From Candidatus Latescibacterota bacterium (GTDB lineage Bacteria; Latescibacterota; UBA2968; UBA8231): DNA of 64,000 bases. A program made the translations under genes and the position numbers. The notes beneath the pieces are model-generated. The model was not told the origin of the DNA. It did no database searches and saw nothing but the letters and a program-made list of their open reading frames with translations. Positions 622 to 19,244 of this stretch are shown here, piece by piece. Location of the stretch: contig CBDCXV010000001.1 in the NCBI GenBank assembly GCA_965223905.1, positions 1,312,001 to 1,376,000 of the forward strand, given 5' to 3'. The stretch's first letter is position 1, and every line of letters starts with the position of its first letter.

Positions 622-945
622 GTGGGGCAATGAATCCCGGAAACGCTCCGGGGCAACAAGGTTCTCCGAGTCGCGGACGGAAGATGTGAGGGTGTGGCAA
701 CATGGCGGGTGACTCGCAGGTAGGCGGGGCTGCGGGACAGCGGCTCGAAAGGGCTGGTATTTGCGGGTTCCAGGGTGTCCTTCACCCACCACCACAGGCA
801 GCACGGCCGATTCAGGGGTGATGGTGCGGTCCGCACCAGCGGTGCCTGTCCGGGAAAGGCCGGTACACCCGGAGCACGCGGCCCCGGTCGATGGAGCGTC
901 CGCCCGGGGCGACGGACAATCAGAAGGGAGAAGGCAGGAGGCCGT

Positions 946-1867
946 TCAGTCTGCGAACCAGCGCATTCCGCACCTGAGCTCGCGGTCGTCGAAGGCGAGG
1001 CTGTACGGGTCGCAGCGCCGGAACACGACGGCGCCGTCGGTGCGCACGACGAGCCAGCCGAAGTCCCAGTTGCCGCTCTCGTAGCGCATCGGGATCGCGG
1101 GCCGCACCCGGATCACCGGTTGGGTGCCGGCTATGAACAGGCGCCTGTCGGTGTAGTAGTAGCCGGAGTGGGTTTCGACGAAGAGCTCGTGCCGGAGGCC
1201 GTCGCCGCCGAGGTCGGCGCACAGGCCCTCGATGGCGACCTTGACGGCGCTGCCGCGCGCGAACGCGTCGGCCAGCTCGGCGACCGAGCCCCCGGTGACG
1301 CGGCCGTCGGCGCCGTGGGCGAGCAGCTGCCGCCAGCGGTCGCTGACGTTGAAGCGGAAGCGGTCGAAGTCGTAGACGAAGTTGTAGCTCGGGGCGTTGG
1401 TGTCCGTGTCCCAGCTGTCCCGGGCGTGGTACTTCGACATGGTCCCCGGCGACGGGGGCCCCGAAGGGCCGGGGGCGCCGCGCGGAGATTCGCCGTCGAG
1501 ATGGGGCCGGGCGATCGCCTGGCCGCCGTCCTGGTTGTAGAGGAAGAAGGACATCGACGGGCGCGGACCGAAGCCGTGGGGGAGATCGACTGGCTGCCTC
1601 AGGCTCATGATTCCGGCGACCCAGCGGCCGTCGACGAGGTAGGTGACGCGGAATTCGGCGACCTCCTGGACGAGCTCGTCGTCGTCGGAGGTCACGTCGA
1701 TATGCTCGTTGTGACGGAACTCGGTGTAGATGCGGAGGTCCTCGCCGGCGCCGACTGCGGCGGCCAGGGCCTGCTCGCTGCCTCCGGATAAGTTGCGGGA
1801 GGGGGGTGGTTGCGGCTGTAGCGTCGAGCTCGAGAACGCATCTCCATCTGCCGGTCGGGGTATCCAC
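946..1867 (-). pseudogene. Conserved hypothetical protein frameshifted near its N-terminus by a 19-bp insertion
   Basis: The start segment (V)DTPTGRWRCVLELDA is in one frame and the body SRNLSGGSEQALAAAVGAGEDLRIYTEFRHNEHID is in another. Removing 1802-1820 joins them in frame. Confidence 0.6.
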
Positions 1868-2122
1868 GGGGGTTCCTTTCTTTGCAGGGCTGTAGGAACC
1901 GATTCAGGACCAGCTCGTTGAGGGGGTGGTTGCGGCTGCAGTACCCCCCAGTCGCTTCGGCCGGGGTGAGTTCCTCCGGAATTCCCGCCGGTCCTGTGAG
2001 ACTCGAGATGGAAGGCGAAGACCTTCATCGGGGGCGAAATTACGAGGCTCCCGCGCGTTGCCACCACTCCGGGCCTTGGCGTTCTTTTGCCGCCGAAGTC
2101 CCATCCTACCGAGGACCCACCC

Positions 2123-3073
2123 ATGCTGAAAGCAGGATTCATCGGCGCCGGCGGCCGCGCCCGCAGCGCCCACTACCCCGCCCTCGCCCGCCTCGACGGC
2201 GTCGACATCGTCGCCGTCTGCGAGCTCGACCCGGAACGGATGCAGCTCGTCGTCGACGAGTACGGCTTCGACAGGACCTTCAGCGACCACCGCGAGATGC
2301 TCGCCGCGGTCGACCTCGACGTCGTCTACTGCGTCATGCACGAGAGATGGCTGCTGCGTCCGGCCCTCGACTGCCTCAACGCCGGCAAGCACCTGTTCAT
2401 CGAAAAGCCGCCGGGCGCCAACAGCGCCGAGACCCGGCAGATGCTCGACGCCGCGGTCGCCAACGACGTCTTCTGCATCGTCGGCCTGCAGCGCCGCTAC
2501 GCCGCGGTCAACCGCGAGGCCGTGCGCCGCGTCGCCGCCAAGGGGCCGGTCTCGGTCGCCAGCGTCACCTTCAACAAGCAGATCCTCGGCGGCGACGGCC
2601 GCGAGTTCAGCACCACCCTGTGGGAGGACGTCGTTCACGTCGTCGACCTGCTGCGCCACTTGGCCGGCGGCGAGCCGCTCGAGGTCAAGGCGTACCGCGA
2701 CTGTTTCGGCAGCCGGAGCCGCAACTGCTACACCTCGATGATCCGCTTCGACAGCGGCGCCACCGGGGTCGTGTTCGGCAACCGCGCCTCCGGGGGACGC
2801 GTGCTGCGCTCCGAGCTGCACGGCGTCGGCATCGGCTGCTACATGAAGATCCCCGGGGAGATCGAGATCCTCGAGGACGGCGAGACCACCGTCATGGGCG
2901 GCTGGGAGGTCGACGGCGTTCCCGAAGAGGACGTGCGGGCCTACGAAGGCACCCTCACCATGCACGAGCATTTTTTGGACTGTATCCGGAACGGCAACGC
3001 ACCCCTGACCGATCTGCGCGACGTGATTCACACCATCGAGCTCGTCGACCGGATCGAGGGCCCGCTGCCCTGA
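2123..3073 (+). CDS. Gfo/Idh/MocA family oxidoreductase
   Basis: Rossmann start GFIGAGGRA, HLFIEKPP motif and GAGG RBS. Confidence 0.9.
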   Translation: MLKAGFIGAGGRARSAHYPALARLDGVDIVAVCELDPERMQLVVDEYGFDRTFSDHREMLAAVDLDVVYCVMHERWLLRPALDCLNAGKHLFIEKPPGANSAETRQMLDAAVANDVFCIVGLQRRYAAVNREAVRRVAAKGPVSVASVTFNKQILGGDGREFSTTLWEDVVHVVDLLRHLAGGEPLEVKAYRDCFGSRSRNCYTSMIRFDSGATGVVFGNRASGGRVLRSELHGVGIGCYMKIPGEIEILEDGETTVMGGWEVDGVPEEDVRAYEGTLTMHEHFLDCIRNGNAPLTDLRDVIHTIELVDRIEGPLP

Positions 3074-3095
3074 CAAAGCTCGAGGAGACCACAGC

Positions 3096-4361
3096 ATGCC
3101 GGAACTGACCGGGCGCAAGCTCGACCTCTACCTGCAGCAGGGCTACCTGCTGATCGAAGACGTCTTCGACCCCTCCCTGTTCGACAACCTGAAAGGCGAG
3201 ATAGACGGGATGGTCTCCGCGGCCGCGGAACGCGCCCATGCGGAGGGGCGGCTCGACGACCTGTTCGAGAGCGAGCCGTTCTCACGCCGTCTCGCCCGCG
3301 TCGCCGAGGCCCTCGGCCATCCCGCGGAGATGCTGCGGCCGTTCCACGGCAAGCTGCGCACCCCGGGCATGTTCGAGATCGTCACCGCCCCGGCCATCCT
3401 CGACATCGTCGAGTCGGTCATCGGCCCGGAGATCCTCGCCCACCCTCAGTTCAACCTGCGCGCCAAGCTGCCCGACCAGGACGAGGGGGTCGTGCCCTGG
3501 CACCAGGACCTCGGCTACCTGCAGCCCGACGCCTCGGACACCTTCATGGTGAACTTCTGGATTCCGATGGTCGACGCGACCCGCGAGAACGGCTGCATGG
3601 AGGTAATCGCCGGCAGCCACAAGGCGCCCCTGATCCCGCACGAGCACGGCATGGGGCCGGCCGCCAACTTCAAGGGCATCCCGGACGAGCACCTGCCCCC
3701 CGGAGAGCAGGTCACGTGCGAGATCGCCGTGGGCGGCGTGCTGCTGATCATGCACAAGACCCTGCACCGCTCCATTCCCAACCGCTCCGACCACATCCGC
3801 TGGAGCCTCGATCTGCGCTACAACGACCCGGCCATGCCGACAGGACGCGACGGCGTCCCCGGCTTCATCGCCCGCAGCGCCGCCGACCCGGGCGCGGTCT
3901 GCACCGGGGTGGAGGAGTGGGACGAGATCATGGCCCCCGCCCGGTCAGCGGCTGATCCTTTTCGATTTGTACGGCGCCTGACACTGTCGTTAACGGCCGC
4001 GGTCGAGGGCGGACGGGGCCGGAAGCGCCGATTCGAGACATGGGTCCGGCAATCCTTCCGGTATCGCTGCCTTCACGGGCGCGGTCGATGGCAGTTCCAG
4101 CCGGCCCGGAAGCGGCAATCCGCACACGGGTCCGGCAATCCCTCCGGCCCCGCTGTCGATCACGGCGACGGTCGATGGCGGTTCCAGCGGGCCGGAAGCG
4201 CGATTCCATACGGGTTCGCAATGCCCTCTGCGCCGCTGCTGTTGGGGGGGCGTAAGGTTGCGGTGCCAACCGCTCAGCCGGCGCCCTGCCGAACCACCCA
4301 CCTGTACCGCTGTCCGGGTTCGTCGCTTCGTATGGGGGGTCGTTGCCTCGTGTGTAGTTGA
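3096..4361 (+). CDS. Phytanoyl-CoA dioxygenase (PhyH) family Fe/2OG dioxygenase; residues after ~3950 are a read-through into repeat DNA
   Basis: PWHQD, NFWIPMVDATRENGCMEVIAGSH and HRSIPNRSDHIRWSLDLRY motifs. Confidence 0.85.
   Translation: MPELTGRKLDLYLQQGYLLIEDVFDPSLFDNLKGEIDGMVSAAAERAHAEGRLDDLFESEPFSRRLARVAEALGHPAEMLRPFHGKLRTPGMFEIVTAPAILDIVESVIGPEILAHPQFNLRAKLPDQDEGVVPWHQDLGYLQPDASDTFMVNFWIPMVDATRENGCMEVIAGSHKAPLIPHEHGMGPAANFKGIPDEHLPPGEQVTCEIAVGGVLLIMHKTLHRSIPNRSDHIRWSLDLRYNDPAMPTGRDGVPGFIARSAADPGAVCTGVEEWDEIMAPARSAADPFRFVRRLTLSLTAAVEGGRGRKRRFETWVRQSFRYRCLHGRGRWQFQPARKRQSAHGSGNPSGPAVDHGDGRWRFQRAGSAIPYGFAMPSAPLLLGGRKVAVPTAQPAPCRTTHLYRCPGSSLRMGGRCLVCS
3999..4290. repeat. Degenerate tandem repeat, ~82-88 bp unit, 3 copies plus a partial fourth
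   Basis: CGGTCGA(T/G)GGC...GCCGGAAGCG...GGGT(C/T)C..CAAT recurs at ~4000, ~4082 and ~4169. Confidence 0.65.
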
Positions 4362-4470
4362 TCGCCCAATGGTGGCCATGGGCAGCCGGTCGATTCCACA
4401 GAAGGCACCATGCCGCCCGTGCCGAGCCGCCGGTTGCGCTGCGAGGCGGTCGGCGCACCCGGTCTCCGCC

Positions 4471-5619
4471 TCAAAACTTGATGCCCACCAGTTCCACTTT
4501 CACCTCAAGGACCGGCGCGACCATCCCGTCCCTGCGAACGGCCCCCGGGGAAGGAACCACCCCCGGCATGGGCAGGCCCGGCGCCGTCACGTACGCTCCC
4601 AAGCCCGGAGAACGGCCGGCGTCCCTCGAGGCGAAGAACTCCTGCGAAGCCTCGTAGTCCCGGGTGAACCAGGTCCCCGCCCCGAGCCCCAGGATCCCCC
4701 CTGCCAGCATCATGGCGTAGGTCGGACGGTCCCGGTGGTGGAGATCCGCCAGGACCGCGGTTCCCAGGCCGTAGAGGGAGCCGACGATCCCACCGAGATT
4801 GACCAGCCGCGCCCGTCCTCCGCTCATCCCCAGACGGGGAGCGAGAACTCCCATTTTCAACAGACCCAGGTTTCCTCCGGTCATGGCGCTGGCGAGAAGC
4901 GCGTCGCTGTCCGTCACCTCCAGGCTTTTTGCGGCGCACAGCGCGAACCAGGCGCCCCATATACCCCCGAAGTTGATCAAGGTCGCCTCGCCGGCGGTCA
5001 CGTAGGTCCGGCGCACGATGGAAGAGGCGGCCGCCAGCCCCAGGGCGCCCCCGCCCATGCTTGCCCCGACCACGGTTTTGTAGCCGCTGCCGGCCAGGAC
5101 CGCCGCTCCGATTCCCTGCCAGGTGCCCCAGGCTCCGCCGAGGGCGAGCAGGGAAGCCTGCCCGTTGCCTAGCGGTGCTCCCCGGGTCTGGACGAGAGTG
5201 GTTTTCATGCCGACCACGGGCCCGGCGATCATCCCCAGATAGACCAGTTCCTCGGACTCCGCCAGGATGCCGGTGCCGAGGCCGACCCAGGTCGCGTACA
5301 GGGTTCCGAAGACGGTCAGCCCCACTCTTGCAGGAGGGCTGATGGCGATCTCGACGCCCTTCATGCGGCGGATCTCCGCCTTTCTGTGGCGGGCGAGGCG
5401 GGAGTACATGCTCTCCTCGTAGTTGGCGGCGATCCAGTCGAAACGCCGCAGGGCTTCGTCGTACTCCCCCCGGCCCATCAGTTCGGTCGTGGCCTCGTAC
5501 ATGATCCTCGCTTCCAGGCCCTCGATCCGCCCTGCTTCCTCCCGGGCACCGAGCTGACAGGGCAGCCAGCAGACCGCCCACAGACCCGGGATCACCCACC
5601 TGATCCATATCGAGAGCAT
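4471..5619 (-). CDS. Exported glycine-rich hydrophobic protein with an N-terminal TPR/BamD-like helix pair
   Basis: Signal peptide, YEATTELMGRGEYDEALRRF helix pair, Gly-rich helices and terminal Phe. Paralog of the next gene. Confidence 0.7.
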   Translation of the reverse strand: MLSIWIRWVIPGLWAVCWLPCQLGAREEAGRIEGLEARIMYEATTELMGRGEYDEALRRFDWIAANYEESMYSRLARHRKAEIRRMKGVEIAISPPARVGLTVFGTLYATWVGLGTGILAESEELVYLGMIAGPVVGMKTTLVQTRGAPLGNGQASLLALGGAWGTWQGIGAAVLAGSGYKTVVGASMGGGALGLAAASSIVRRTYVTAGEATLINFGGIWGAWFALCAAKSLEVTDSDALLASAMTGGNLGLLKMGVLAPRLGMSGGRARLVNLGGIVGSLYGLGTAVLADLHHRDRPTYAMMLAGGILGLGAGTWFTRDYEASQEFFASRDAGRSPGLGAYVTAPGLPMPGVVPSPGAVRRDGMVAPVLEVKVELVGIKF

Positions 5620-5626
5620 GGCTCTG

Positions 5627-6847
5627 CTAAAACCTGACTTTCAACAGGACGGCGCGGATGGATGCCGAGGGATGCGACGGGCGTTCTCCGGTCAACCTGC
5701 CGGCAGCGGCGGGGACGGATATCCCGGGGGCAGGGGCCGACCAGCTCCATTCTACTTGAGCACTGCCCCGGGCGGAAGCTCCGGATGCGAGGTCGTGCTG
5801 CCTGATCGCGAAACCCGACCAGAGCCCGGCGATGCCTCCCGCCGTTACGATGCCCATGGGCACCGTGGCATTTTCGAAGCTGCCTTGCAGGGCGAGGAGG
5901 CCGACAATGCCGCTGGCCACGAAAGTGCCCGCCACTCCCCCCAGGTTGACCATGCGGGCCTGCTCCCGGCTCAGCTCAATCCGGGGGACCAGCATCGCCA
6001 TGGCGGCAAGGCCCAGGTTCCCCCCAGTCAGGGAACTCTTCAGGACCCCGTCGTCATCCGCTTCGGCCATGACCGAGAGACAGAATCCGAACCACGTTCC
6101 CCAGAGTCCCGCGTAGTCGAGAAGACTGGCGTCCCCCGTGCTGACGTCGGCAACGCGGGTGAGCGCCGCACTGCCGGCGATGCCGGCCAGTCCCCCCGCC
6201 ATCGAAAACGCGGTCAGTCGCCGGTCGGAGGGTTCGTCTCCGGAGGCGACGGTCCATCCGAACCCCTGCCAGGTTCCCCAGAGACCGCCGAGCCGGACGA
6301 GGGCTGCCTGCCCCGGACTCAGGGCCGCATCCCGGGTCAGGAGATGGGTGGTGAGCAGGCCGGCGGGGGCGCCGCTCATCATGCCCGCGGCCAGGGCCTG
6401 GTCCGAGTCCGCCCCCGCGACGATGGCCGTTCCCACCCCCAGCCAGGTTGAGTAGAGCGTGCCGTACACGAGTGCGCCGGTGCGGCCTGCCTGGTCGCCG
6501 GGTCCGCGGTCGCCCTGATGCAGACCCAGCTCGTCGAGGCGTCTTTTCCGTTCGGCAGCGAGGGCGGCGGGCAGGGTTCCGGGATACCTGTCGGTTATTT
6601 CGCCCAGGTAGTCGTAAGCCGTGCCGTACTGGCCATCGGCGAGCGCCGTGAATGCGCTCTCGTACAGCTTTTCGACCTCTGTTTCAGCCGCGGCTTTTTC
6701 CCCGGCCTGAAGCGCGTGGACCGGGACCAGGAGCAGGAGGGCGGCAACCGTGGCATGCGGTATGGGTAAACGGGCTCGGATTGTCGGCAGGAAGGGCATC
6801 TTCTGAAGCAGCCGGAGTGGGGTTCTTATCACGGGAGCGGATTTCAC
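5627..6847 (-). CDS. Paralogous glycine-rich hydrophobic protein with a TPR-like N-terminus (true start may be downstream)
   Basis: Shares GTLYxTWxGxGT, GQAxLxxLGGxWGTWQG and GGNLGL motifs with 4471..5619. Ends VLLKVRF. Confidence 0.7.
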   Translation of the reverse strand: MKSAPVIRTPLRLLQKMPFLPTIRARLPIPHATVAALLLLVPVHALQAGEKAAAETEVEKLYESAFTALADGQYGTAYDYLGEITDRYPGTLPAALAAERKRRLDELGLHQGDRGPGDQAGRTGALVYGTLYSTWLGVGTAIVAGADSDQALAAGMMSGAPAGLLTTHLLTRDAALSPGQAALVRLGGLWGTWQGFGWTVASGDEPSDRRLTAFSMAGGLAGIAGSAALTRVADVSTGDASLLDYAGLWGTWFGFCLSVMAEADDDGVLKSSLTGGNLGLAAMAMLVPRIELSREQARMVNLGGVAGTFVASGIVGLLALQGSFENATVPMGIVTAGGIAGLWSGFAIRQHDLASGASARGSAQVEWSWSAPAPGISVPAAAGRLTGERPSHPSASIRAVLLKVRF

Positions 6848-6990
6848 CTGAGTATCTTACGGTTGACCGGGCCTTGGACAAACACCCCGGATCGAGCAGA
6901 CCGGATGACCAGACGCAAGTCGCCGTCACCAGAGCGGCCGGGTACTCCGATCACTTCCTCTGCGATTTTTTTGGGATACAACTCCACATT

Positions 6991-7018
6991 TGTATTGATA
7001 ATTCTGTATTGATAATTC
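6991..7018. repeat. Perfect 14-bp tandem repeat in a divergent intergenic region
   Basis: TGTATTGATAATTC x2. Confidence 0.85.
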
Positions 7019-7158
7019 GGGAGTTGGGGTCACATTTCCCGTGGTGGCGCCAGTGTACGGGAATAGCAGGAGAACGGCGCCCGGGCAGGAATGTAACCGC
7101 GTGCCCCGGCCTTCCCCGGCCGTTGCCCGCCCCCATGTACCCTCGTTACTATTCGTCC

Positions 7159-7989
7159 ATGCTGCTGACTGATGCCCACCCCCAGATGGAACGCGACCTG
7201 CGCTTCTACCCCGCTGAAAACAGGCACCCGAAAACCCTCACCCGCGCCCAGGTCGACCAGTTCAACCGGAAGGGGTTCGTCTTTCCCCTCGACGTCTTCG
7301 ACGAGTCCGAAGCCGGGGCGAACCGCGCCTGGTTCGACGACCTGATGCAGCGGGCCGCGGCCGCGGGCCACAACAGCTATTCGATCAACGGCTGGGACAG
7401 GTACTGTTCGGCCATCTACGATCTCGCGGTCGAGCCCCGCATCCTCGATTTCGTCGAGGACCTGCTCGGCCCGGATCTCATCTGCACAATGACCCATTTC
7501 TTCTGCAAGGAACCGGGGGAGAAAAAGCAGGTCGCCTGGCACCAGGACGCCTCCTACTGGGCGATCACTCCCAGCCAGATCGTGACCGTGTGGCTGGCGA
7601 TCGACGACGTCGGCATGGACAACGGGCCGATGACGGTGATCCCCGGCTCCCACCTGCACGGCCAGATTCCCTATCAGAAAATTGGCGACATGTCGGCCAA
7701 CGTGCTCAGCCAGTCGGTGCCGAACCCCCTCGACTGGGGGGACGAGCCGGTTCCTTTCGTCATGAAGGCGGGCCAGGTGTCGCTGCACAGCGACCTGCTG
7801 CTGCACGGCTCGGTGCCGAACAACTCGGCCCGCAGGCGCTGCGGACTGACCCTGCGCTACAACCCGCCCGACGTGCGCCTGGAGCAGACCAGGGAAGCGT
7901 CCGCCATCGTCGCCCGCGGCCGCGACCTGTCCGGATACTGGCAGCACCGGAAGCGCCCCGACGGGAACGGGATTCCCGATCCCAGGTAG
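7159..7989 (+). CDS. PhyH family Fe/2OG dioxygenase
   Basis: VAWHQDASYW, VTVWLAIDD, VIPGSH and LLHGSVPNNSARRRCGLTLRY motifs. Confidence 0.9.
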   Translation: MLLTDAHPQMERDLRFYPAENRHPKTLTRAQVDQFNRKGFVFPLDVFDESEAGANRAWFDDLMQRAAAAGHNSYSINGWDRYCSAIYDLAVEPRILDFVEDLLGPDLICTMTHFFCKEPGEKKQVAWHQDASYWAITPSQIVTVWLAIDDVGMDNGPMTVIPGSHLHGQIPYQKIGDMSANVLSQSVPNPLDWGDEPVPFVMKAGQVSLHSDLLLHGSVPNNSARRRCGLTLRYNPPDVRLEQTREASAIVARGRDLSGYWQHRKRPDGNGIPDPR

Positions 7990-8232
7990 CGGCCCCGCCC
8001 GTTACCCCGCCTCGAGGTCCGGGCTCCCGCCCCGCAGCATCGACTGCCGTGGCAAGGCGGAAACCCTTCACATTCAGCCTCTTCCCGCCTTTACCGGCAG
8101 CTGTCGATGGCAGAGATTTTTCCTTCTGCATTAGAGTTCGATATCAGCCGTTTCACCACTTCCGTAAGCCAGAGGTATGTCTCATGAATCTGAATTGCAA
8201 ACGGTGTTCCGGGGCCAGGTACGGCTGCTCCC

Positions 8233-9780
8233 ATGACCGGGGATTCGCGGCGCGAACCATCCGGCCGGCGGCCTTTTTTCTCGGCGCCTTCTGGCGGTAT
8301 GGACGGCTCCCGGGGCCGCGCAGGAGAACGCCGAGTCGTGCGCAAACGGAGTTGTTGTCCCTGAACCGGAGAACAACCCCGACCTGGTGGCGGACTGCGA
8401 GGTGTTGCTGGCCCTGCGAGACCGCTATGCCGAGGACGCCGACCTGGAGTGGAGCGCGGACACCCCGATCACCGAGTGGGAAGACATTGTGGTCGAGGAT
8501 TTCGTCCTGACCGAGCTGGCTCAGCTCCCCCGGCTGAAGGTGCTGTTCCTCAAGAACAACGAGCTGACCGGGACGTTTCCGACCGAGCTGCTCGCCATGA
8601 CGAACCTCACGGACCTGAGCCTCAGCCAGAACGAGCTGACCGGCACGATCCCGCCGGAGCTGAGCCAGCTGACGAACCTCGAGGGGCTGGGTATCAGCAA
8701 CAACGAGCTGACCGGGTTGGCGAACCTCGAGTGGCTCGGCCTCCACAGGAACCAGCTGTCCGGCACGATTCCGCCGGGGCTGGGCGAGGTGACGACGCTG
8801 GAGGGGCTGGACCTCGACAACAACGAGCTTACCGGCGGGATTCCCCCCGAGCTGGGCAATCTCGAAAACCTGACGGCGCTGTTGCTCCACACCAACGAGT
8901 TGACGGGCGATATCCGGCCGAGCTCGGGCAGCTGGAAAACCTGCAGTTCCTGTGGCTGAACGACAACGACCTGTCCGGCTCCATTCCCACCGAGCTCGGC
9001 CAGTGACGAGCCTCGAACTGCTGGGCATTCACAAGAACGATTTGAGCGGACCCATTCCACCCGAGCTGGGGAAACTGGAGAACCTGGAATGGCTGGACCT
9101 CGACACCAACGAGCTGTCAGGACCTGTCCCGGCGGAGCTGGGCCGACTGGAAAACCTGGAGGGGATGATACTGCACACCAACGAGTTGTCCGGATCGATT
9201 CCGCCGGAGCTGGGACAGCTGGCCAAGCTGGAAGACCTGCGACTGCACGAAAACATGCTGAGCGGCCCGATACCGATCGAGCTGGCCCAGCTATCCAGGC
9301 TGAAGGTGCTGTGGCTCAACGACAACGAGCTGACGGGGGAGATCCCTTCCGACCTGGCCCAGCTGACCAGGCTGGAAGACCTGCGCTTCGGCGGTAACCA
9401 GTTCAGCGGGTGCGTGCCGGAGGAGCTGAAGGAATGGGCCGAGGAGATGCCGGTCTGCGGCGAGGACACCGCGGTGATAACCGAGCTGGGCGGCTTGCCC
9501 GCGGCCAGCGGCCTCGATCCCAATTACCCCAACCCCTTCAACGGCGTCACCCGGATCACCTACCGCCTCGCCGACCCCGGGCCGGTGCGGCTCGACGTCT
9601 ACAACGTGCTGGGCCAGCCGGTGCATACCCTGGTGAGCGAGGTCCAGGCCGCGGGGGTGTACCAGGTCTCCTGGGACGCCCGCGACCAGCGGGGCGCGGA
9701 GGCAGGGACGGGAGTCTACCTCGCCCGCCTGCAGTACCCCCGGCGGGGTGCAGACGAGGCAGTTGCTCTACCTCCGGTAG
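8233..9780 (+). pseudogene. Plant-type leucine-rich-repeat exported protein with a C-terminal FlgD-Ig domain; about 4 frameshifts
   Basis: Cap CANGVVVPEPENNPDLVADCEVLLALRD, LxxNxLxGxIPxELG repeats and NYPNPFN...VYNVLGQ...WDARD. Frame changes near 8285, 8914, 9003 and 9740; the restored end is YPGGVQTRQLLYLR* at 9780. Confidence 0.85.
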
Positions 9781-11726: not shown

Positions 11727-12383
11727 ATGGCGCGCAGGCTCCGCTGCTCCGCTTCCCTCTGGTCCGCGGACCTGTCGCGGCTCGCCGGGGAGATTCGCCG
11801 AGTCGAGCCGTACTGCGAGCGCTTCCACCTCGACGTCGCCGACGGCCGCCTCGTCGACACCATGCTGTTCTTCCCCGATCTCGTGGCGGCGCTGCGGCCG
11901 CACACCCGGCTGCCGTTCGAGGTTCACCTGATCACCCGCGAGCCGCTGACCTGGGTCGAGCCGTTCGTCTCCGCAGGCGCCGACATCGTCATCTTCTACC
12001 CAGGAACCGGCAGCGGCAGCGCCGAAACGATCGCCGCGGTGCGTGAAGCCGGGGCCCTTCCCGGAGTCTCGCTCGCCCTCGGCGACGACCCCGGCCTGCT
12101 GGATCCGTTCTGGCCGCAGCTCGACGTCGTCACCGTCGTCGGTACGGAGATCGGCATCAAGGGTGCGGACATGGACCCGGCGGTACCCGGCCGCATCCGC
12201 CGCTGCCGCGCCGCCATCGACCGCGGCGGCCACCGGACCCTCGTCGAGGCGGACGGGGGGATCCGCCGCCACACCGTGCCGCTGATCGCCGCGGCCGGCG
12301 CCGACTTCATCGTCCCGGGATCGCTGATGTTCGGTGAGGATCCGGCGCAGATGCGCGCCTGGCTGGAGACTCTGCAGGCATGA
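11727..12383 (+). CDS. Ribulose-phosphate 3-epimerase family protein
   Basis: ASLWSAD, FHLDVADG, EVHL, EADGGI and VPGS motifs. Confidence 0.9.
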   Translation: MARRLRCSASLWSADLSRLAGEIRRVEPYCERFHLDVADGRLVDTMLFFPDLVAALRPHTRLPFEVHLITREPLTWVEPFVSAGADIVIFYPGTGSGSAETIAAVREAGALPGVSLALGDDPGLLDPFWPQLDVVTVVGTEIGIKGADMDPAVPGRIRRCRAAIDRGGHRTLVEADGGIRRHTVPLIAAAGADFIVPGSLMFGEDPAQMRAWLETLQA

Positions 12384-12658
12384 TTCACTCACCGCGGGTC
12401 GAGATCACGTACTGCGTCAAGTGCCGGTGGCTGCTGCGGGCGGCCTGGACCGCCCAGGAGCTGCTGACCACGTTCGCCGGGGAGCTCGGCGAGGTGGCGC
12501 TGGTTCCGGGGGATTCCGGGGTGTTCGAGGTGCGCGTCGGCGGCGAGCTGGTCTGGTCGCGCTCGGAACGCGGCCGCTTCCCGGAGATGAAGGAGCTCAA
12601 GCAGCTGGTTCGGGACCGCGTCAGCCCGGACAAGGACCTCGGCCACTCGGAGCGCTGA
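12380..12658 (+). CDS. SelT/SelW/SelH (Rdx) family protein
   Basis: ITYCVKCRWLLRAAWTAQELLTTF and GRFPEMKELKQLVRD...DLGHSE. Confidence 0.95.
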   Translation: MIHSPRVEITYCVKCRWLLRAAWTAQELLTTFAGELGEVALVPGDSGVFEVRVGGELVWSRSERGRFPEMKELKQLVRDRVSPDKDLGHSER

Positions 12659-12826
12659 GCGCCGGCCTGTCTTGGTATGGGAAGGGTTTCTTCACCTCCG
12701 CGGTGGCCTGAGGATCTTGGTAGCCCTGACCGATCCGGGCTCGACCCGGCATAACGAGCTTCAGGAACTTGCCCGGCAGGGTGGGTGCTTTCAGTGCCTT
12801 GATTGAGGCTCCCAAAACGGTGTCTT

Positions 12827-13120
12827 ATGTTCGAGTTCGAATGGGATCCGGCCAAGGCGGCGAGCAATCTCCGGAAGCACGAGGTCAGTTTCGAAATTGC
12901 CGCAACGGTCTTTATGGATCCGTTCATGCAGTCGATTCCCGACGAGTATCACAGCGATTTTGAAGAGCGGTGGATAACTATGGGTCTCGCTTGTAACGGT
13001 CAGTTGTTGGTGGTTTCCCACACCTACACCGAAATGGACGGCGACAAGACATTGGTGCGGATCATCTCGGCTCGCACCTCCAACCCTAACGAGCGGCGTC
13101 AATTCGAGTCAGGGGAATGA
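12827..13120 (+). CDS. brnT: BrnT family ribonuclease toxin
   Basis: FEWDPAKAASNLRKHEVSFE...EERWITMG...LLVVSHT...VRIISAR...ER..F. Confidence 0.93.
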   Translation: MFEFEWDPAKAASNLRKHEVSFEIAATVFMDPFMQSIPDEYHSDFEERWITMGLACNGQLLVVSHTYTEMDGDKTLVRIISARTSNPNERRQFESGE

Positions 13121-16100
13121 AGAGCGAATACGATTTTTCAAAAGGTGAGCGCGGCAGGTTCTACCGGGAAAACGCTAAGGTGAGCTTGCCCACTCTCGAA
13201 GAGAAGGCGGCATGGGTTGGCCCCGAAGGCCCGCTTGGTGAGTTCATTGTCAGGGAGACGAAGAAGACCCTCGATTCATATCGCGTGCAGCCACGCCTCG
13301 TAACCGAGCACTCCAACCAGGAATACGATACGGCCCACGGCGGATATGCTCGTCGGCAACTCTTCGAGCTAGTCCAGAACAGCGCGGACTCTTTGCTCGA
13401 CGCTCCTAATTTGCTCGACGCTCCTAATGGGAAGAGCATACTGATCCGCCTGACGAAACGCTTCCTCTACTGCGCCGACGATGGAAAACCCATCGCCGAG
13501 GACGGTGTGGTGGGGCTCATGTTCGACCGCATGTCGAGCAAACGGAACACCCTCGCAATCGGTAGGTTCGGGAAGGGGTTCAAATCGGTCCTGAAAGTAA
13601 CGGATGCTCCCGAGTTCTACAGCCGGTCAGGATCCTTTCGGTTCGACAGCACGCGCGCGGCACGGCAGATAGCGGAGATCGCGTCGGCTGAGCGCTACCC
13701 CGTGTTGCGTTTGCCAGAACCCATCGATCCCTGCAATGAGAGGGATGCCGACGAGGAAATGCAGGAACTGATGAGTTGGGCGACGAACATCGTCCGCCTG
13801 CCACTAGAACCCGGTGCGCATGACGACCTCGCCCAACAGATCAGGGACTTTCCGCCCGAATTTCTGCTTTTCGTCGATCACGTCCGTTATCTGACCCTTG
13901 AGGATGGAGAAGTCTCCCGGAGCTTCATCTTGCAGGATCGGCAGGGAGAGCTTCATCTCGATACCGACGAAGGGACTACGCGTTGGCGACTTTTCAAAAC
14001 AACCCATTCCCTTTCCCCGGAAGCACGGAGCGACTGGGTCTTGCACGAGGACAGCGGCAACGTGCCGATCTCGTGGGCGGCGCCGCTGGACCGCTTGGAT
14101 CGTCCCGGACATTTCTGGGCGTTCTTCCCGACCAGTACCGCGAGCCTCGTCGCCGGCATTTTGAATGCGCCGTGGAAGACTAATGAGGATCGTCAGAATC
14201 TATTGCCTGGGCTGTATAACGAAGAGTTGATCGAAGCCGCCGCGGCAATGATTGCCGAGACGCTCCCGAAACTCGCGACGAATGACGACCCGGTTCGACA
14301 TTTGGACGCACTGCCGCGCCGACGCCAAGGAGGCGATTCTGAACAGGCTGATCTCCTTCGAAAGCACCTGTTCCGGGGCCTTCACGAACGAGAAATTGTC
14401 CCTGACCAAGATGGAAATCTGAATGCCCGCAAGGATATCTCGTATCCCCCGAAGGAGCTGACCCGGAGCGACCAGATTGATGCAGCGCCCTTCGAGCGCT
14501 GGGCCGCATACCCTGGCCGCCCGCGCGATTGGCTTCACCACAGGGCGCTCACACGCAACCGGCTCGCCACCATCGACCGGCTGTATCACCCGGAAGGTGA
14601 GCCCCCTGGATGGTCATCGTCCGGCGCGCCGAGGGCCCCCGTGCACGAGTGGTTGCAGGCACTTGTAGAAGGCAAGGAAGCGGACGAGGCGATCCGAGCT
14701 TCAATGTGGGCGATCCAGACCGCCGTGCTCGTTCCGGGCGTGGCGCGCCGGGAAGTTAACTTGGCAAAAATCGTATTGACGGGGGACTGCAGCTGGCAGT
14801 CCCCCGATCCCGAACACCTTGTTCTGCCCGACGAGGCGTTTAGTGGGGGCGGCACCGAAGATCCAAAGGGGTGCGTTCACCCAAAACTGGCAGAGGACCA
14901 CGACACGCTTTCGGCGCTGAAAGAGTTGGGCCTCAAGCCGCCGTCTCCCGAGAGCAGGTTCAGACGCGTTGCAAGGAGCGTCCTTAGAAGCGGCGACGGT
15001 CAAGGGGCGGCCATTGGTCATGGCGAGTTCTGGGCCTCGGCGCGCAAGCTGTCGTTAGAGACCGTTGTGGACATTATTCGAGAACACAGAGACTTGAAAG
15101 GAGAACTCTGGCCAAGGAAACTCCGGGTTCGAACACGGGCGGGCGTTTGGAGACCGCTCCACTCCGTGCTGCTTCCAGGTGAAATCGTGCCTAGCGACGG
15201 AAGCCGGGACAACGACGTAACCGTGGATATCCGCTTCCATAAAACGGACGAAAACTTGCTGCGCGCCTTTAGAGTAACGGAGGCACTGAGTGACGGCTGC
15301 GATCTGTCGATAGAGCCATGGTTTCAGGATTTCTTGAAAGGATGCCGCAAGCGTTTCACCAGCCGCGACCTGAAAAGAAGTCCGCATTCACACCTATTGA
15401 ATTTCAAAACGAACATCGGTCACGGTCCCTTGGAAGTCCTTCGCCGTCTTTCGGGCGAAGGACGTTCGCGATACACGGATGTCCTGTTGTCCGATGATGC
15501 GACTTACAGAACGTGGACTATGCGTCACGACTCGTCGGATATTTATCCACCGCTCCCGTTCAAGTCGCCGGCGGTTTCCATGCTCCCAAAATATGGATGT
15601 ATCCAAACCACTGGCGGCATTGTTCCGCTGGCGTACGCGCTCGGACCGAACCCGAAGAGTCCGGAAGCCCTGCACGTGCTGCTTACCCATTCGAATGCTG
15701 ACAAGATCAAGGCAGTGTTTGATCTGGTGGAACCGACGCCGGTTTTCTTTGGAGAAGACGATCCTGTCCCATTGACAGATGTCTGGCCTGGACTTGGACA
15801 GCATCTTCCGGTGTATCGGAGAACCTGCAGTCTCATTCGCTGCGAGCGAATTCTCGTCATTGGAGAACCCCGCGAGTGCGTCTTTCACGCCTCCAATTTA
15901 TATCTCTCTGACTCCGTTGGTGATAACGAGTTACGAAAACTTCGGGTCGTCGTGAAGGAGCTGGAGTTGGGGCTTAACTTTCAACAGCTCGTCGCGATAC
16001 TGAACCGCAGGACACCGCAAGAGATCGAAAAGAGACGCGAGGCGATACGACAATGTTCAACCGACGCGGAACGTCTGCTGGCGACGGTGGGTGAAGAAGC

Positions 16101-17652
16101 AATACGTAAAGATCTTCCCGATTCTCTTATAGCTGTACTTGAGAGTTACGATCAAGAACTCACGGGTGCTGACCTCGCGGAGGCTGCCATAGCTACTTGG
16201 CACACTGATGCACTCAAGCAATACAGGTGGGCGTTGGATCATCTTGGCCCCCCATCACAATGGGCTGGCTCGCAGCGGGCTGTCGACTTCGTGCGGTCGC
16301 TCGGGTTCTCCCCCGAATGGGCCGGAGAGCGGGAGGAGAAACGCGATCCCTTTCTGGAAATCGAAGGCCCGTACTCCCTTCCGGGGCTTCATGCCTACCA
16401 GCGGACCATCGTCGACAAGGTCCGGAATATGCTGCGTAACGAACATGGGGACGGTGCCCAACGGCGCGGGATGATCAGCATGCCGACCGGCTCCGGTAAG
16501 ACGCGCGTCGCGGTACAGGCGATTGTCGAAGCCATCCGAGATGACGGCTTCCGTGGGGGCATCCTTTGGGTAGCGGACCGTGACGAGTTGTGCGAGCAGG
16601 CCGTGGAAGCATGGCGGCAAGTGTGGTCGAGCATCGGCACAGAAGGTGTTCAACTTCGAGTGTCTAGGATGTGGGCAGGGCAGCCCTCCCCAATGCCGAC
16701 GAACGATCTCCATGTTGTCGTCGCGACGATCCAGACGCTTAGTGCCCGACTCAACAAACAAACCAGCGATTACGAATTTCTAGCGGATTTCAATCTGGTC
16801 GTCTTCGACGAGGCGCATAGGTCGATTGCTCCGACTTTCACCTCGGTCATGAGGGAGATCGGTCTGACACGTTTCCAAAGGCCGAATGAGCCGTTTATGC
16901 TCGGGCTTACCGCCACGCCTTACCGCGGCCACGACGCGGAAGAGACAGCGTGGCTTGTTCGCCGTTACGGAAACAGGCGGCTCGATTCGGGAGCATTCGC
17001 AAGCGACGATGTCCAAGCCGTTATCCAGGAGTTGCAGGACAGGGGCGTGCTTGCCCAAGCGGACCATGAAACTATTGAGGGCGAGACGTTTCCACTCGAG
17101 GTGATTCTTGATGACTCACACGAAAAGGAAGAGTTGAAACGGATATTGGACGAATGGCAGACGCTACCTTGGCTACCGGAGAGGGTAGAGAAGCGCATCG
17201 CCCAGAGCGCCGAGCGAACCAAACGCATCATCGAAGCGTATGAAACCCATATTCATCCGGAATGGCCCACCCTTGTCTTCGCGACATCGGTCGAGCACAC
17301 CCAGACTGTGGCGGCACTCCTCAACAAGAGAGGTGTCCGGTCGCGCGCTGTCAGCGGAGAGACGGAAACTGCAACCCGCCGACATGTGGTGGAAGAGTTT
17401 CGGGGCGGCGAGGTCAGGGCGCTCGTCAACTACGGGGTATTCCGCGAGGGGTTCGACGCACCCAAGACCCGAGCCATCATTGTGGCTCGGCCAGTCTACA
17501 GCCCGAACCTCTATTTCCAGATGATAGGTAGGGGTTTGCGGGGACCATTGAACGGGGGCGACGACCGCTGCCTCATCCTCAACGTCCGAGACAACATCGA
17601 GAACTTCTACCGAAAGCTCGCTTTCTCCGAGTTGGATTGGCTTTGGGCCTGA
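13117..17652 (+). CDS. Fusion of an antitoxin-like N-terminal peptide, a sacsin-like GHKL ATPase domain and an SF2 DEAH helicase
   Basis: MKSEYDFSKGERGRFY; ELVQNSAD, ADDGKP and IGRFGKGFKSV; MPTGSGKT, DEAH, LGLTATP, EGFDAP and QMIGRGLR. Confidence 0.85.
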   Translation: MKSEYDFSKGERGRFYRENAKVSLPTLEEKAAWVGPEGPLGEFIVRETKKTLDSYRVQPRLVTEHSNQEYDTAHGGYARRQLFELVQNSADSLLDAPNLLDAPNGKSILIRLTKRFLYCADDGKPIAEDGVVGLMFDRMSSKRNTLAIGRFGKGFKSVLKVTDAPEFYSRSGSFRFDSTRAARQIAEIASAERYPVLRLPEPIDPCNERDADEEMQELMSWATNIVRLPLEPGAHDDLAQQIRDFPPEFLLFVDHVRYLTLEDGEVSRSFILQDRQGELHLDTDEGTTRWRLFKTTHSLSPEARSDWVLHEDSGNVPISWAAPLDRLDRPGHFWAFFPTSTASLVAGILNAPWKTNEDRQNLLPGLYNEELIEAAAAMIAETLPKLATNDDPVRHLDALPRRRQGGDSEQADLLRKHLFRGLHEREIVPDQDGNLNARKDISYPPKELTRSDQIDAAPFERWAAYPGRPRDWLHHRALTRNRLATIDRLYHPEGEPPGWSSSGAPRAPVHEWLQALVEGKEADEAIRASMWAIQTAVLVPGVARREVNLAKIVLTGDCSWQSPDPEHLVLPDEAFSGGGTEDPKGCVHPKLAEDHDTLSALKELGLKPPSPESRFRRVARSVLRSGDGQGAAIGHGEFWASARKLSLETVVDIIREHRDLKGELWPRKLRVRTRAGVWRPLHSVLLPGEIVPSDGSRDNDVTVDIRFHKTDENLLRAFRVTEALSDGCDLSIEPWFQDFLKGCRKRFTSRDLKRSPHSHLLNFKTNIGHGPLEVLRRLSGEGRSRYTDVLLSDDATYRTWTMRHDSSDIYPPLPFKSPAVSMLPKYGCIQTTGGIVPLAYALGPNPKSPEALHVLLTHSNADKIKAVFDLVEPTPVFFGEDDPVPLTDVWPGLGQHLPVYRRTCSLIRCERILVIGEPRECVFHASNLYLSDSVGDNELRKLRVVVKELELGLNFQQLVAILNRRTPQEIEKRREAIRQCSTDAERLLATVGEEAIRKDLPDSLIAVLESYDQELTGADLAEAAIATWHTDALKQYRWALDHLGPPSQWAGSQRAVDFVRSLGFSPEWAGEREEKRDPFLEIEGPYSLPGLHAYQRTIVDKVRNMLRNEHGDGAQRRGMISMPTGSGKTRVAVQAIVEAIRDDGFRGGILWVADRDELCEQAVEAWRQVWSSIGTEGVQLRVSRMWAGQPSPMPTNDLHVVVATIQTLSARLNKQTSDYEFLADFNLVVFDEAHRSIAPTFTSVMREIGLTRFQRPNEPFMLGLTATPYRGHDAEETAWLVRRYGNRRLDSGAFASDDVQAVIQELQDRGVLAQADHETIEGETFPLEVILDDSHEKEELKRILDEWQTLPWLPERVEKRIAQSAERTKRIIEAYETHIHPEWPTLVFATSVEHTQTVAALLNKRGVRSRAVSGETETATRRHVVEEFRGGEVRALVNYGVFREGFDAPKTRAIIVARPVYSPNLYFQMIGRGLRGPLNGGDDRCLILNVRDNIENFYRKLAFSELDWLWA

Positions 17653-17695
17653 TTCTCACAGCTTTTTCCTAAGCCCATTCCGCGGCACCGCCCGA

Positions 17696-17816
17696 TCAGC
17701 CGAGCCCCGGAAGTCCTAAGGCTGTCGCGGCGGATGATCTCCTCGAGTCTGTCCCCAGGCACGCGCGGCATTTTCGTCCCTTCGACGATGCCGTTGACAC
17801 GGCGAATGCAGTCGAC
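17696..17816 (-). repeat. Diverged copy of the 3' end of the amidohydrolase gene (18348..18467)
   Basis: Encodes RRVNGIVEGTKMPRVPGDRLEEIIRRDSL versus RRVNDIVEGTKLPRVPEDRLEEIIHRDSL in the gene. The TGA is retained. Confidence 0.9.
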
Positions 17817-18202
17817 TATCCGCCCATCTGAGCCGTGCGCCTGACCATCCACTCTACGTAGCTCTTGCGGGTCATGCCGCGGCGCTTGGCTTCGGAATTG
17901 ATTACAGTGGCCACGCCGGCATCGACCACCAGGTTGAGCCGTACAGAGCGGCTGCGAGACGGACGAACCAGCAGGATCGTGGACAACGTGCTGTCGGCAG
18001 GAACATCAATAGCCTCAAGGGGGCTCGGGTCCGGAATCTCGTACCCGATCTCCTCCATACTATCCATCCAGTCCTGGAGTGCGTCCTCTGCATTGACCAT
18101 AGCCTCGTCCAAGGTGTGACCCATTGCCACACACCCAGGCAGGTCAGGGAAGACGACCCCGTAGGCCCCATCCTCACCATCGATCAAAATCGGATATCTC
18201 AT
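17816..18202 (-). CDS. hicB: HicB family antitoxin
   Basis: MRYPILIDGEDGAYGVVFPDLPGCVAMGHTLDEA and a C-terminal RHH-like segment. Confidence 0.92.
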   Translation of the reverse strand: MRYPILIDGEDGAYGVVFPDLPGCVAMGHTLDEAMVNAEDALQDWMDSMEEIGYEIPDPSPLEAIDVPADSTLSTILLVRPSRSRSVRLNLVVDAGVATVINSEAKRRGMTRKSYVEWMVRRTAQMGG

Positions 18203-18295
18203 GCTTTTTTCCCCCAGCCGGCATTTTTCGCAATGGACCGGGCTACGCCCGGCGAAACCAGTGCGGTGCATTGGGACAACAATAACAATGGTGTA
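18199..18295 (-). pseudogene. hicA: HicA toxin remnant (truncated and frameshifted)
   Basis: IVVPMHRT then, after a frameshift, VSPGVARSIAKNAGW. The stop overlaps the hicB ATG. Confidence 0.75.
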
Positions 18296-18347
18296 GCCAA
18301 CTTTCCGCGCCAAGCACCTCCAGTCGCAACGTCCCCTGCTCCTGCAA

Positions 18348-19244
18348 TCATCCCAGCCCCAGGATGCCGAGACTGTCCCGGTGGATGATCTCCTCGAGCC
18401 TGTCTTCCGGCACGCGCGGCAGCTTCGTGCCCTCGACGATGTCGTTGACGCGGCGTACGTGATCGGCGGTCTCCCGCGCCGTGGCGATCGGGTAGTCGGA
18501 CCCGAACAGGATCTTGTCGAGCACGTTCCACTCCGTCGCCTTGATCATCTGCTCCCAGAACGAGAACGGGCGGTAGAAGTTCCCCGACAGGTCGGTGTAG
18601 ACGTTGGGGTGCTTGCGCACCACGACGCAGGTTTCGGTCTGCCACGGGTGGCCGAGGTGGGCCATGATGATCTTCAACTCCGGGTAGCGGGTGGCCAGCT
18701 CGTCAATGAGCAGCGGGTGGGCGTAGCGGATCGGGGCGTCGCGGATCGGCGAGGTCCCCTGGTGCAGCATCAGCGGCAGGCCCCGTCTCTCCGCTTCGGC
18801 GTAGATCGCCAGGGCGCGCGGGTCGAAAGGATCGAAGTTCTGGTAGTTTGCTCCCTGCTTGACGCCGGCGAGGCCGAGGTCGCTGTGGCAGCGCTCCAGC
18901 TCCTCGAGCGCTTGCGGGTCGTACGGGTGCAGGGTCATGAAACCGATCAGGCGCCCGGGGTGGGCGGCGACGAAGGCGGCGATGCCGTCGTTGAGGTTGC
19001 CCCGGTACCAGGGCTCCTGCTCCGGCGCCTCGAGTCCGGGCAGCCGCGGCTGCTCGCCCCCCGGATTGGTGGCGATGCTGAAGACGATCGACTTCTCCGC
19101 CGGCTCCTGCGCTTCGAGGTAGTCCTCCCAGCAGGTGGTCACCTTGACCGGCCGGTCGGGGCGCCAGACGTGGTTGTACTGGTCCGGCTCGCCTGTGAGG
19201 GGGTCCTTGTAGAGCGGCGGATGGGTGTGGACGTCGACGATCAT
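18348..19244 (-). CDS. Amidohydrolase_2 family protein
   Basis: IVDVHTH, MLHQG, IMAHLGHPW and LFGSDYP motifs. Confidence 0.92.
   Translation of the reverse strand: MIVDVHTHPPLYKDPLTGEPDQYNHVWRPDRPVKVTTCWEDYLEAQEPAEKSIVFSIATNPGGEQPRLPGLEAPEQEPWYRGNLNDGIAAFVAAHPGRLIGFMTLHPYDPQALEELERCHSDLGLAGVKQGANYQNFDPFDPRALAIYAEAERRGLPLMLHQGTSPIRDAPIRYAHPLLIDELATRYPELKIIMAHLGHPWQTETCVVVRKHPNVYTDLSGNFYRPFSFWEQMIKATEWNVLDKILFGSDYPIATARETADHVRRVNDIVEGTKLPRVPEDRLEEIIHRDSLGILGLG

Follow-up and report, generated by a model that had tools for sequence, protein, structure and literature searches.

A brnT toxin gene coupled to a Tiamat-like ATPase-helicase with an antitoxin-type N-terminal peptide

Which protein restrains a BrnT toxin when the gene behind it does not encode a small antitoxin? 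The question is raised by a 64,000-nucleotide stretch of Candidatus Latescibacterota bacterium DNA (the window; contig CBDCXV010000001.1, positions 1,312,001 to 1,376,000), in which brnT overlaps an open reading frame (ORF) for a Tiamat-like ATPase-helicase of 1511 amino acids (aa). A sequence-only reading of this DNA had proposed that the large protein fills the antitoxin slot of BrnT and that the pair is a candidate new anti-phage system. The first half of this proposal is supported by comparative evidence: of the 32 family loci whose large protein begins with a BrnA-type antitoxin peptide, 28 have a brnT frame directly upstream, compared with 0 of the 48 loci whose protein lacks this peptide. 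The claim of a new system stands less well, as the ATPase-helicase fusion itself is already known as Tiamat-like Type III-A, and the earlier interpretation is, as a whole, partly supported. We consider it probable, on balance, that in this two-gene module the large protein took over the role of BrnT's antitoxin and probably also that of the sensor.

The toxin gene and the peptide behind it

The brnT product belongs to the BrnT family (Pfam BrnT_toxin, 1.5e-24, 86.5 bits against a cut-off of 34.5), and its nearest solved structure is PDB 7vd7, a 'toxin' (E = 9.3e-17). Residues K17, R78 and R83 are invariant across 22 orthologues, and H18 is kept in at least 90% of them. For BrnT of Brucella abortus, K16, H17 and R72 are reported as necessary for toxicity, as cited in PMC13284704; the K17–H18 dyad is present in the protein described here, the correspondence to R72 being by pattern only. 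Catalytic motifs are intact in BrnT and in the ATPase and helicase of its large partner alike.

The stop of brnT and the start of the large ORF share an ATGA, as the sequence-only reading had seen, and 22 of the 24 family loci with a full-length brnT retain this arrangement. The ORF opens with MKSEYDFSKGERGRFYRENAKVSLP, and its likeness to antitoxins is confined to the first 25 residues. No match to ribbon-helix-helix (RHH), BrnA or CopG models was found anywhere in the 1511 aa, so that the protein does not qualify as a small RHH antitoxin.

Several searches trace the peptide to small antitoxins, with a likeness well above chance. A loose regular expression for it matches 3 of the 129,385 six-frame ORFs of the 7.9-Mb genome, each time at the first residues of an ORF directly behind a brnT: the 1511-aa ORF, a canonical 83-aa BrnA and a 1055-aa SNF2 helicase. 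In a relative's genome, brnT is followed by a 66-aa antitoxin whose start is identical to the peptide at 19 of 26 positions (E = 3e-14), and there the peptide runs directly into an RHH-like segment. A 30-residue query against 1.84 billion representative proteins (threshold E <= 1e-3) returned 65 matches, the best at 1.2e-7, and 64 of them are only 34–111 aa long. Judged by eye, most read 'MKxEYDFSKGERGKFYRxNAKLNLP' followed by 'VYLDxEV...', which makes them small proteins of peptide plus RHH-like part; about seven of the short matches are pieces of the large family, as is the lone 443-aa match. The fusion point in the large protein coincides exactly with the start of the RHH DNA-binding part of the small antitoxins. 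Judged by sequence likeness, residues 1–25 derive from the N-terminus of a BrnA-type antitoxin, and the resemblance noted earlier is borne out.

Structure prediction adds little on the contact between the two proteins. Co-folding of BrnT with residues 1–40 scored 0.29/0.27 against a mark of 0.32, without controls, and speaks neither for nor against binding. In an AlphaFold2 model of an in-frame BrnT–peptide read-through found at family locus L070, computed with BrnT rows only, the BrnT part reaches a predicted local distance difference test (pLDDT) score above 90 and the peptide part 44–54.

Read-derived contigs support the junction. Contigs of runs X1 and X2, possibly from the source sample, cover positions 12916–13262 with 0 differences, and a single contig of 4102 nt, from run X3 of another study, extends over 12600–13800 at ~93% identity. 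No RNA run figures among the 24 runs listed. Since the junction is reproduced in run contigs and the architecture is conserved elsewhere, the fusion is no assembly artefact.

Co-occurrence, selection and descent

Database homologues of the large protein number more than 1500; the best 120 are 60–79% identical over the full length, and 107 of these begin with the peptide (counted by eye). We collected 80 family loci, at 46–75% identity, from a scan of one genome per species. Their large proteins start with the BrnA-type peptide (32 loci), with the N-terminal half of another antitoxin (4), with a lysine/arginine-rich tail (10) or with none of these (34), four of the labels having been corrected by hand. 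A BrnT profile built from the six copies in the Latescibacterota genome was then searched in all frames of the 80 loci. The 28 brnT frames upstream of peptide-bearing genes comprise 24 of full length, 2 frameshifted, 1 truncated and 1 in-frame read-through; three further peptide loci (L017, L028, L029) retain only the C-terminus of BrnT upstream, and L071 has no brnT recognisable with this profile. The L071 homologue (4001–9523 of that locus), at 1840 aa, is ~330 residues longer than the others. No third conserved gene was found, brnT being the sole flank gene common to the peptide-bearing loci. The same architecture thus recurs in other genomes, and the reservation that the fusion might occur only in this assembly falls away, the peptide being carried by loci from at least six phyla.

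Within the peptide, positions E4, Y5, D6, F7, S8, R12, G13, F15 and P25 are kept among the 32 sequences despite many synonymous codons: S8 is written TCA, TCG, TCC or AGC, G10 and P25 use four codons each, and F7 is TTT 15 times and TTC 17 times. Because residues are kept while codons vary synonymously, the peptide is translated and under purifying selection. Codons 26–32 are poorly conserved, and the W33 that follows them is kept in 31 of 32 sequences.

In a FastTree phylogeny built after removal of the N-terminal extension (76 rows; without L024 and L070, which are too short, and L015, L058 and L064, which were lost in the trimming), the peptide-bearing forms group in two clades, of 27 and 4 members, each with a support of 100. 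The peptide-bearing clade spans Pseudomonadota, Acidobacteriota, Gemmatimonadota, Latescibacterota, Binatota and Spirochaetota. This distribution indicates that the module has moved horizontally between at least six phyla and was kept over long divergence. Of the 36 loci linked to a toxin, 35 have a large ORF that stays open over roughly its whole length (L012 reaches the contig end); the exception is L070, where the toxin frame is abnormal too. An intact toxin beside a broken large gene was seen at 0 of these 36 loci, an asymmetry in toxin decay that would be expected if the large protein is the antitoxin.

A second toxin system appears to have been recruited independently at the same place. 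Four Dehalococcoidia loci of the family begin with the N-terminal half of an HI1420-type antidote (PF21716 positions 2–54 of 90; 26.5–27.4 bits against a cut-off of 27). A Gp49/HigB-like toxin gene (PF05973) lies 9–10 nt upstream in L045 and L060, is truncated in L059, beside a transposase-like ORF, and is reduced to a stub in L037. In both toxin systems the replacement affected the half of the antitoxin that binds DNA.

The remaining brnT genes of the Latescibacterota genome point in a similar direction. A small BrnA follows just one of the six copies (L001, a canonical brnT-brnA pair whose 83-aa BrnA, of the same peptide class, matches PF14384 at 47.9 bits). Four of the five copies outside the window precede PADLOC defence-type proteins, namely two DrmD-like SNF2 helicases, the Septu pair PtuA and PtuB, and an FRG-TPR protein, and three of these four partners carry antitoxin-like N-segments, one DrmD-like protein only weakly. 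The first DrmD-like helicase (1055 aa; PADLOC DrmD, 4.6e-116) has the same peptide as the ORF in the window; the N-terminus of the second (1137 aa) bears a weak, no more than suggestive likeness to the first half of PF14384 (E = 0.082). Behind another brnT, PtuA (1.4e-132) and PtuB (6.4e-70) follow, and the first 41 residues of PtuA, which include a 38-residue N-extension, are 39% identical (E = 1e-8) to the CopG-type antitoxin of a relative's brnT. A divergent brnT followed by an FRG-domain and TPR protein (PADLOC PDC-S15) occurs in this genome and in one relative (L006, L114), and no antitoxin-like N-segment was identified on this partner. Among 20 related genomes only 2 of 26 brnT loci have large partners, so the habit is, on this sample, enriched in this genome and not universal.

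The locus of the first DrmD-like helicase (L087) is ordered brnT, DrmD-like SNF2 helicase with BrnA peptide, 518-aa TmtA-like ATPase and ISL3 transposase. It is a split relative of the fused system in the window, and its Tiamat-like gene may have been shortened by the insertion sequence. Among the 120 closest homologues of this helicase, 11 begin with the peptide, 8 start inside it, 30 carry an N-terminal HEPN_Swt1 RNase domain and one has the N-terminal part of PF12441. The 8 that start within the peptide are probably mis-called starts. The HEPN_Swt1 (PF18731) homologues fall within the set P0145–P0239 (9.8e-19 for P0145). By analogy, an RNase fused where others carry the toxin tag is the best hint that a tethered toxin may serve as effector.

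Two side observations concern the wider family. Ten homologues from Dehalococcoidia and other Chloroflexota (L032, L035, L042, L043, L048, L049, L054, L062, L064 and L068) have a lysine/arginine-rich N-tail of 30–60 residues (near 3820–4000 of their loci), perhaps a nucleic-acid-binding extension. Many family loci come from metagenome-assembled genomes with names of sponge symbionts (Poriferihabitaceae, Spongiisocius, Poriferisodalis), and run X3 is labelled as a sponge metagenome; the family may be enriched in the sponge habitat.

Domains of the large protein and its surroundings

The domain order announced by the sequence-only reading, peptide, sacsin-like ATPase, unassigned stretch and SF2 (superfamily 2) helicase, is confirmed, the unassigned stretch being a 640-aa core (Table 1). 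The ATPase matches PADLOC TmtA of Tiamat (E = 1.7e-46), as the N-terminal GHL ATPase of a Tiamat protein should, and NCBIfam P_loop_sacsin over residues 80–168 (53.5 bits against a cut-off of 50). Its motifs ELVQNSAD and GRFGKGFKS are intact, and the N-box (E84/N88/D91) and G-boxes are invariant among 29 sequences. Directly after the N-box lies a perfect duplication of LLDAPN, which is present with 0 differences in the X1/X2 contigs and absent from the X3 and X5 contigs; the family consensus has a single copy, and the duplication is specific to this genome. The helicase matches Pfam ResIII (1.6e-27), DEAD (6.6e-17) and Helicase_C (2e-13) within residues 1091–1498. Its best NCBIfam match is RadD-like (1.3e-31), with PADLOC PbeA at 3.1e-23 and UvrB merely at 8.1e-05. 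The C-terminal PD-(D/E)xK nuclease (DUF3883) is not present, the helicase standing in its place, and TmtA profiles align only to residues 42–522.

No Pfam family matched the core, of which an AlphaFold2 model (residues 441–1090) is confident, with a mean pLDDT of 85.5. Foldseek found no PDB entry that matches this model at E <= 1e-3, and VIA-align gave a top Z of 4.9, without a confident fold assignment. Residues 609–722 have weak VHS/CID-like helical matches, and residues 879–968 resemble zincins weakly (3e11, Z 4.5, rmsd 3.3 over 70 aligned residues; 1xm5 YbeY, Z 4.0; 4qhf, Z 4.0; Wss1), all these zincin-like scores lying under the level that excludes chance. HExxH is absent from the entire 1511-aa protein. 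The Tiamat core is described as 'TPR-like repeats plus inactive metalloprotease-like fold' in the text of Yuan et al. (bioRxiv 10.64898/2026.09.30.754977, Oct 2026), and the model of the core is compatible with that description, without proving a match.

Table 1. Positions of the module's features and of related genes; numbering is that of the window unless a locus is named.
Feature	Position	Strand	Basis or remark
168-nt spacer from Rdx-family gene to brnT, presumed promoter region of the two-gene operon	12659..12826	+	position only
brnT, 97-aa RelE/BECR-fold RNase toxin	12827..13120	+	Pfam BrnT_toxin PF04365
Stop/start overlap ATGA, translational coupling	13117..13120	+	TGA stop 13118-13120, ATG 13117-13119
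1511-aa ORF: antitoxin peptide, Tiamat-like GHL ATPase, core, SF2 helicase	13117..17652	+	
BrnA-type antitoxin N-peptide MKxEYDFSxGxRGxF...LP, proposed BrnT-binding tag	13117..13191 (residues 1-25)	+	
Variable linker ahead of conserved W33	13192..13212 (residues 26-32)	+	low conservation
GHL ATPase, sacsin/Tiamat-type, with transducer-like part	13240..14451 (residues 42-445)	+	PADLOC TmtA PDLC03964
Perfect 18-bp tandem duplication (LLDAPN x2)	13392..13427	+	repeat search
Core without Pfam family; helical repeats and alpha/beta part	14452..16371 (residues 446-1085, 640 aa)	+	conserved
Weakly zincin-like (metalloprotease-like) sub-fold without HExxH	15751..16020 (residues 879-968)	+	VIA-align
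SF2 helicase core	16372..17649 (residues 1086-1511)	+	motifs I PTGSGKT, II DEAH, III TATP, VI QMIGRGLR
HicB-like antitoxin gene, 164 nt downstream of the large ORF	17816-18205	-	PF15919, 3.7e-20
L087 (G000:C11:2056000-2066000), DrmD-like helicase	5986-9153	-	
L087, 518-aa TmtA-like protein	4427-5983	-	
L087, ISL3 transposase	3076-4374	-	
L116 (G000:C11:1540000-1547000), also L003, PtuA	729-2189	+	brnT ahead
L116, also L003, PtuB	2202-2840	+	

The module lies in a block (13–18 kb) with a GC content of 0.54–0.62 against 0.63–0.71 in its flanks, in agreement with the impression of the sequence-only reading, and ordinary metabolic and housekeeping genes stand on both sides. A consensus scan of positions 12300–18500, the upstream spacer included, found 0 sigma-70-like promoters. 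The earlier statement that no stand-alone antitoxin follows brnT needs qualifying, because a HicB-like antitoxin gene lies downstream of the large ORF. As the module's missing partner this gene was rejected: it has only 2 weak matches among the 80 loci, neither placed as in the window. No hicA was seen beside it. The gene is bracketed by 86-nt direct repeats (17719–17804 and 18370–18455, 85% alike), both corresponding to the 3' end of the adjacent amidohydrolase gene; the arrangement resembles a scar left by an insertion that carried a replacement for this gene end with it.

Proposed mechanism, rivals and known systems

In the mechanism that we favour, an ancestral BrnA-type antitoxin, made of N-peptide and RHH domain, lost the latter, and its peptide became residues 1–25 of the large protein, as the comparisons show; with no RHH domain in the partner, autoregulation by an RHH repressor is lost. 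At rest, the ATGA overlap would couple the synthesis of the two proteins, and the peptide would bind BrnT and hold it inactive on the N-terminus of the ATPase. GHKL ATPases such as GyrB, MutL and Hsp90 have a mobile N-terminal strap that shifts on ATP-driven dimerisation, and the peptide sits where we take this strap to be. Less certainly, the GHL ATPase/helicase body may sense foreign nucleic acid, and a strap movement driven by nucleotide or substrate could set BrnT free or expose it on its tether. The active toxin would then cut RNA and halt translation, leading to abortive infection or dormancy. Because a helicase replaces the PD-(D/E)xK nuclease of Tiamat, BrnT would supply the nuclease effector that the Tiamat-like type lacks.

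Several observations weigh against this mechanism, and some of them favour its main rival, in which the peptide neutralises BrnT, the pair only locks a large mobile gene in, and BrnT is never released by phage while the ATPase-helicase defends, or does something else, on its own. Toxin-antitoxin (TA) modules are classic stabilisers, and this module is mobile across phyla. No toxin-linked N-terminus is found at 44 of the 80 loci, and 10 of the 36 linked ones have a decayed toxin or none while the large ORF is intact; the core function can therefore do without the toxin, which may be a mere add-on or selfish passenger. The asymmetry of decay described above would also follow from selection on the large gene for other reasons. 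On the tree, the peptide-bearing forms need 1–2 changes, so that the split of 32 against 48 loci represents a few old events and not 80 independent trials. The BrnA of L001 could neutralise this BrnT in trans. Profile searches of separate segments, which matched the ATPase and helicase, gave no Pfam or NCBIfam match with residues 1–40 or 1–68 alone, and the complete small proteins of peptide plus RHH-like part reach only sub-threshold CopG, BrnA and RHH scores; they therefore form a poorly modelled BrnA/CopG subclass. We nevertheless regard stabilisation through addiction as rather unlikely. A tag at the extreme N-terminus is still made by downstream nonsense and frameshift mutants and would be a poor guard against inactivation, two different toxin systems were recruited to the same N-terminal position, and the covalent RNase found there in 30 of 120 proteins of the related helicase family fits an effector role better.

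BrnT might instead be a resident RNase subunit that degrades phage RNA as the SF2 motor unwinds or translocates it, with the peptide as permanent tether and not as inhibitor. Type III-A Tiamat-like proteins do lack Tiamat's nuclease domain, and the HEPN_Swt1-SNF2 fusions are an example of an RNase covalently attached to the N-terminus of a helicase. The tag, however, stems from an antitoxin, a protein whose known function is to inhibit; a BrnT that is unrestrained and bound only by a short peptide is expected to be toxic; and nothing in the data separates RNA from DNA as helicase substrate. Such a stable holoenzyme seems to us improbable. Least of all do we expect a neutral relic, in which a deletion fused the start of brnA to a neighbouring gene and the peptide is functionless, or translation starts at GTG (V22) or TTG (L24). 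These two codons are indeed present at residues 22 and 24, and TmtA homology starts only at residue 42. Such a relic is hard to reconcile with residue conservation and synonymous codon turnover in 32 sequences at 46–79% protein identity, with the retention of the peptide in nearly all of the best homologues, with the stop/start overlap and with the strict co-occurrence of peptide and brnT. The earlier suggestion that the large gene simply captured the TA translation start is likewise contradicted by the co-occurrence, by selection on the peptide and by the second toxin pair.

More tentatively, N-segments of type II antitoxins could be portable 'toxin-docking tags' that give unrelated defence NTPases a detachable, switchable RelE-fold RNase, a tether interchangeable with a fused HEPN_Swt1 and, in the Tiamat-like case, released by the GHL strap; this broader idea is possible, and we hold it with clear reservation. 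Candidate carriers are Tiamat-like ATPase-helicases, DISARM-type DrmD SNF2 helicases, Septu PtuA and FRG-TPR proteins. If the proposed mechanism is true, Tiamat-like Type III-A proteins gain an effector, and defence sensors would recruit toxins modularly by keeping 25–50 antitoxin residues and dropping the DNA-binding domain. The tag is short, recognisable in sequence and paired with a known toxin family, which makes the idea directly testable. It is also searchable, in that large genes behind 'orphan' toxins become candidate defence sensors, a description that fits 5 of the 6 brnT copies here; current annotation gives 'DEAD/DEAH box helicase' only and leaves the brnT genes looking like orphans.

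The module resembles several known systems in part. The Brucella abortus BrnT/BrnA type II toxin-antitoxin system, reportedly described by Heaton in 2012, shares with it a PF04365 toxin, the toxin-first order, the overlapping stop and start and a partner with the BrnA-subclass N-peptide, but the partner here has 1511 aa and no RHH domain, compared with about 65–110 aa and an RHH domain there. PARIS (AriA-AriB) and Hachiman (HamB-HamA) each use a large ATPase or helicase to restrain a nuclease effector until a trigger arrives. The mechanism proposed here follows that logic, with an NTPase sensor that sequesters a toxic nuclease and frees it upon sensing infection. The proteins are unrelated, however, the contact in those systems is not made by any recognisable type II antitoxin segment, and release of the nuclease has been demonstrated experimentally there and is proposed here. 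CapRel SJ46 is a fused toxin-antitoxin defence protein. Like the BrnT-BrnA fusions, it is a rearranged TA module with the antitoxin part joined elsewhere and maybe a defence role; in these proteins toxin and antitoxin are fused together, whereas here the antitoxin segment sits on a 1480-aa ATPase-helicase and the toxin is separate.

Other comparisons come from published surveys. The gene pair COG2929-COG5304/COG3514 was defined by Makarova (2009), according to the part of that work considered here. The relevant passages of Gerdes (2025; PMC11980606) list BrnT-BrnA single-chain fusions and multidomain RelE-fold toxins, and antitoxin tags on large NTPases are not among the arrangements given there. 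Type III-A of Yuan et al. consists of an ATPase, a core and a UvrB-like SF2 helicase that replaces the nuclease, and the GHL/sacsin ATPase, large core and C-terminal SF2 helicase of the window fit this definition by domain order; the difference from canonical Tiamat is the SF2 helicase in place of the C-terminal PD-(D/E)xK nuclease. In their Type III-A text 'BrnT' occurs 0 times and 'antitoxin' once, in a general remark on PIN domains; that text reports no antitoxin peptide at the N-terminus and no coupled toxin gene, and the neighbourhood supplement may list neighbours. BrnT-like genes have also been placed upstream of RtcR-associated CoCoNuT systems, which the authors called consistent with programmed cell death in the passage concerned (Bell et al., eLife 2024, PMC11090510). 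There, too, the gene of a BrnT-like RNase directly precedes that of a large defence NTPase and runs in the same direction, but the partner is of McrBC type and the passage on it mentions no antitoxin-derived peptide.

In the literature searched, we found no description of BrnT or an antitoxin peptide on a large ATPase or helicase, and conserved toxin docking through an antitoxin-derived N-peptide appears to be undescribed. Having neither an RHH antitoxin nor a PD-(D/E)xK nuclease, the module is filed as a variant and not as a member of either parent family. Its closest systems are PARIS and Hachiman by logic, and BrnTA and Tiamat-like Type III-A by descent.

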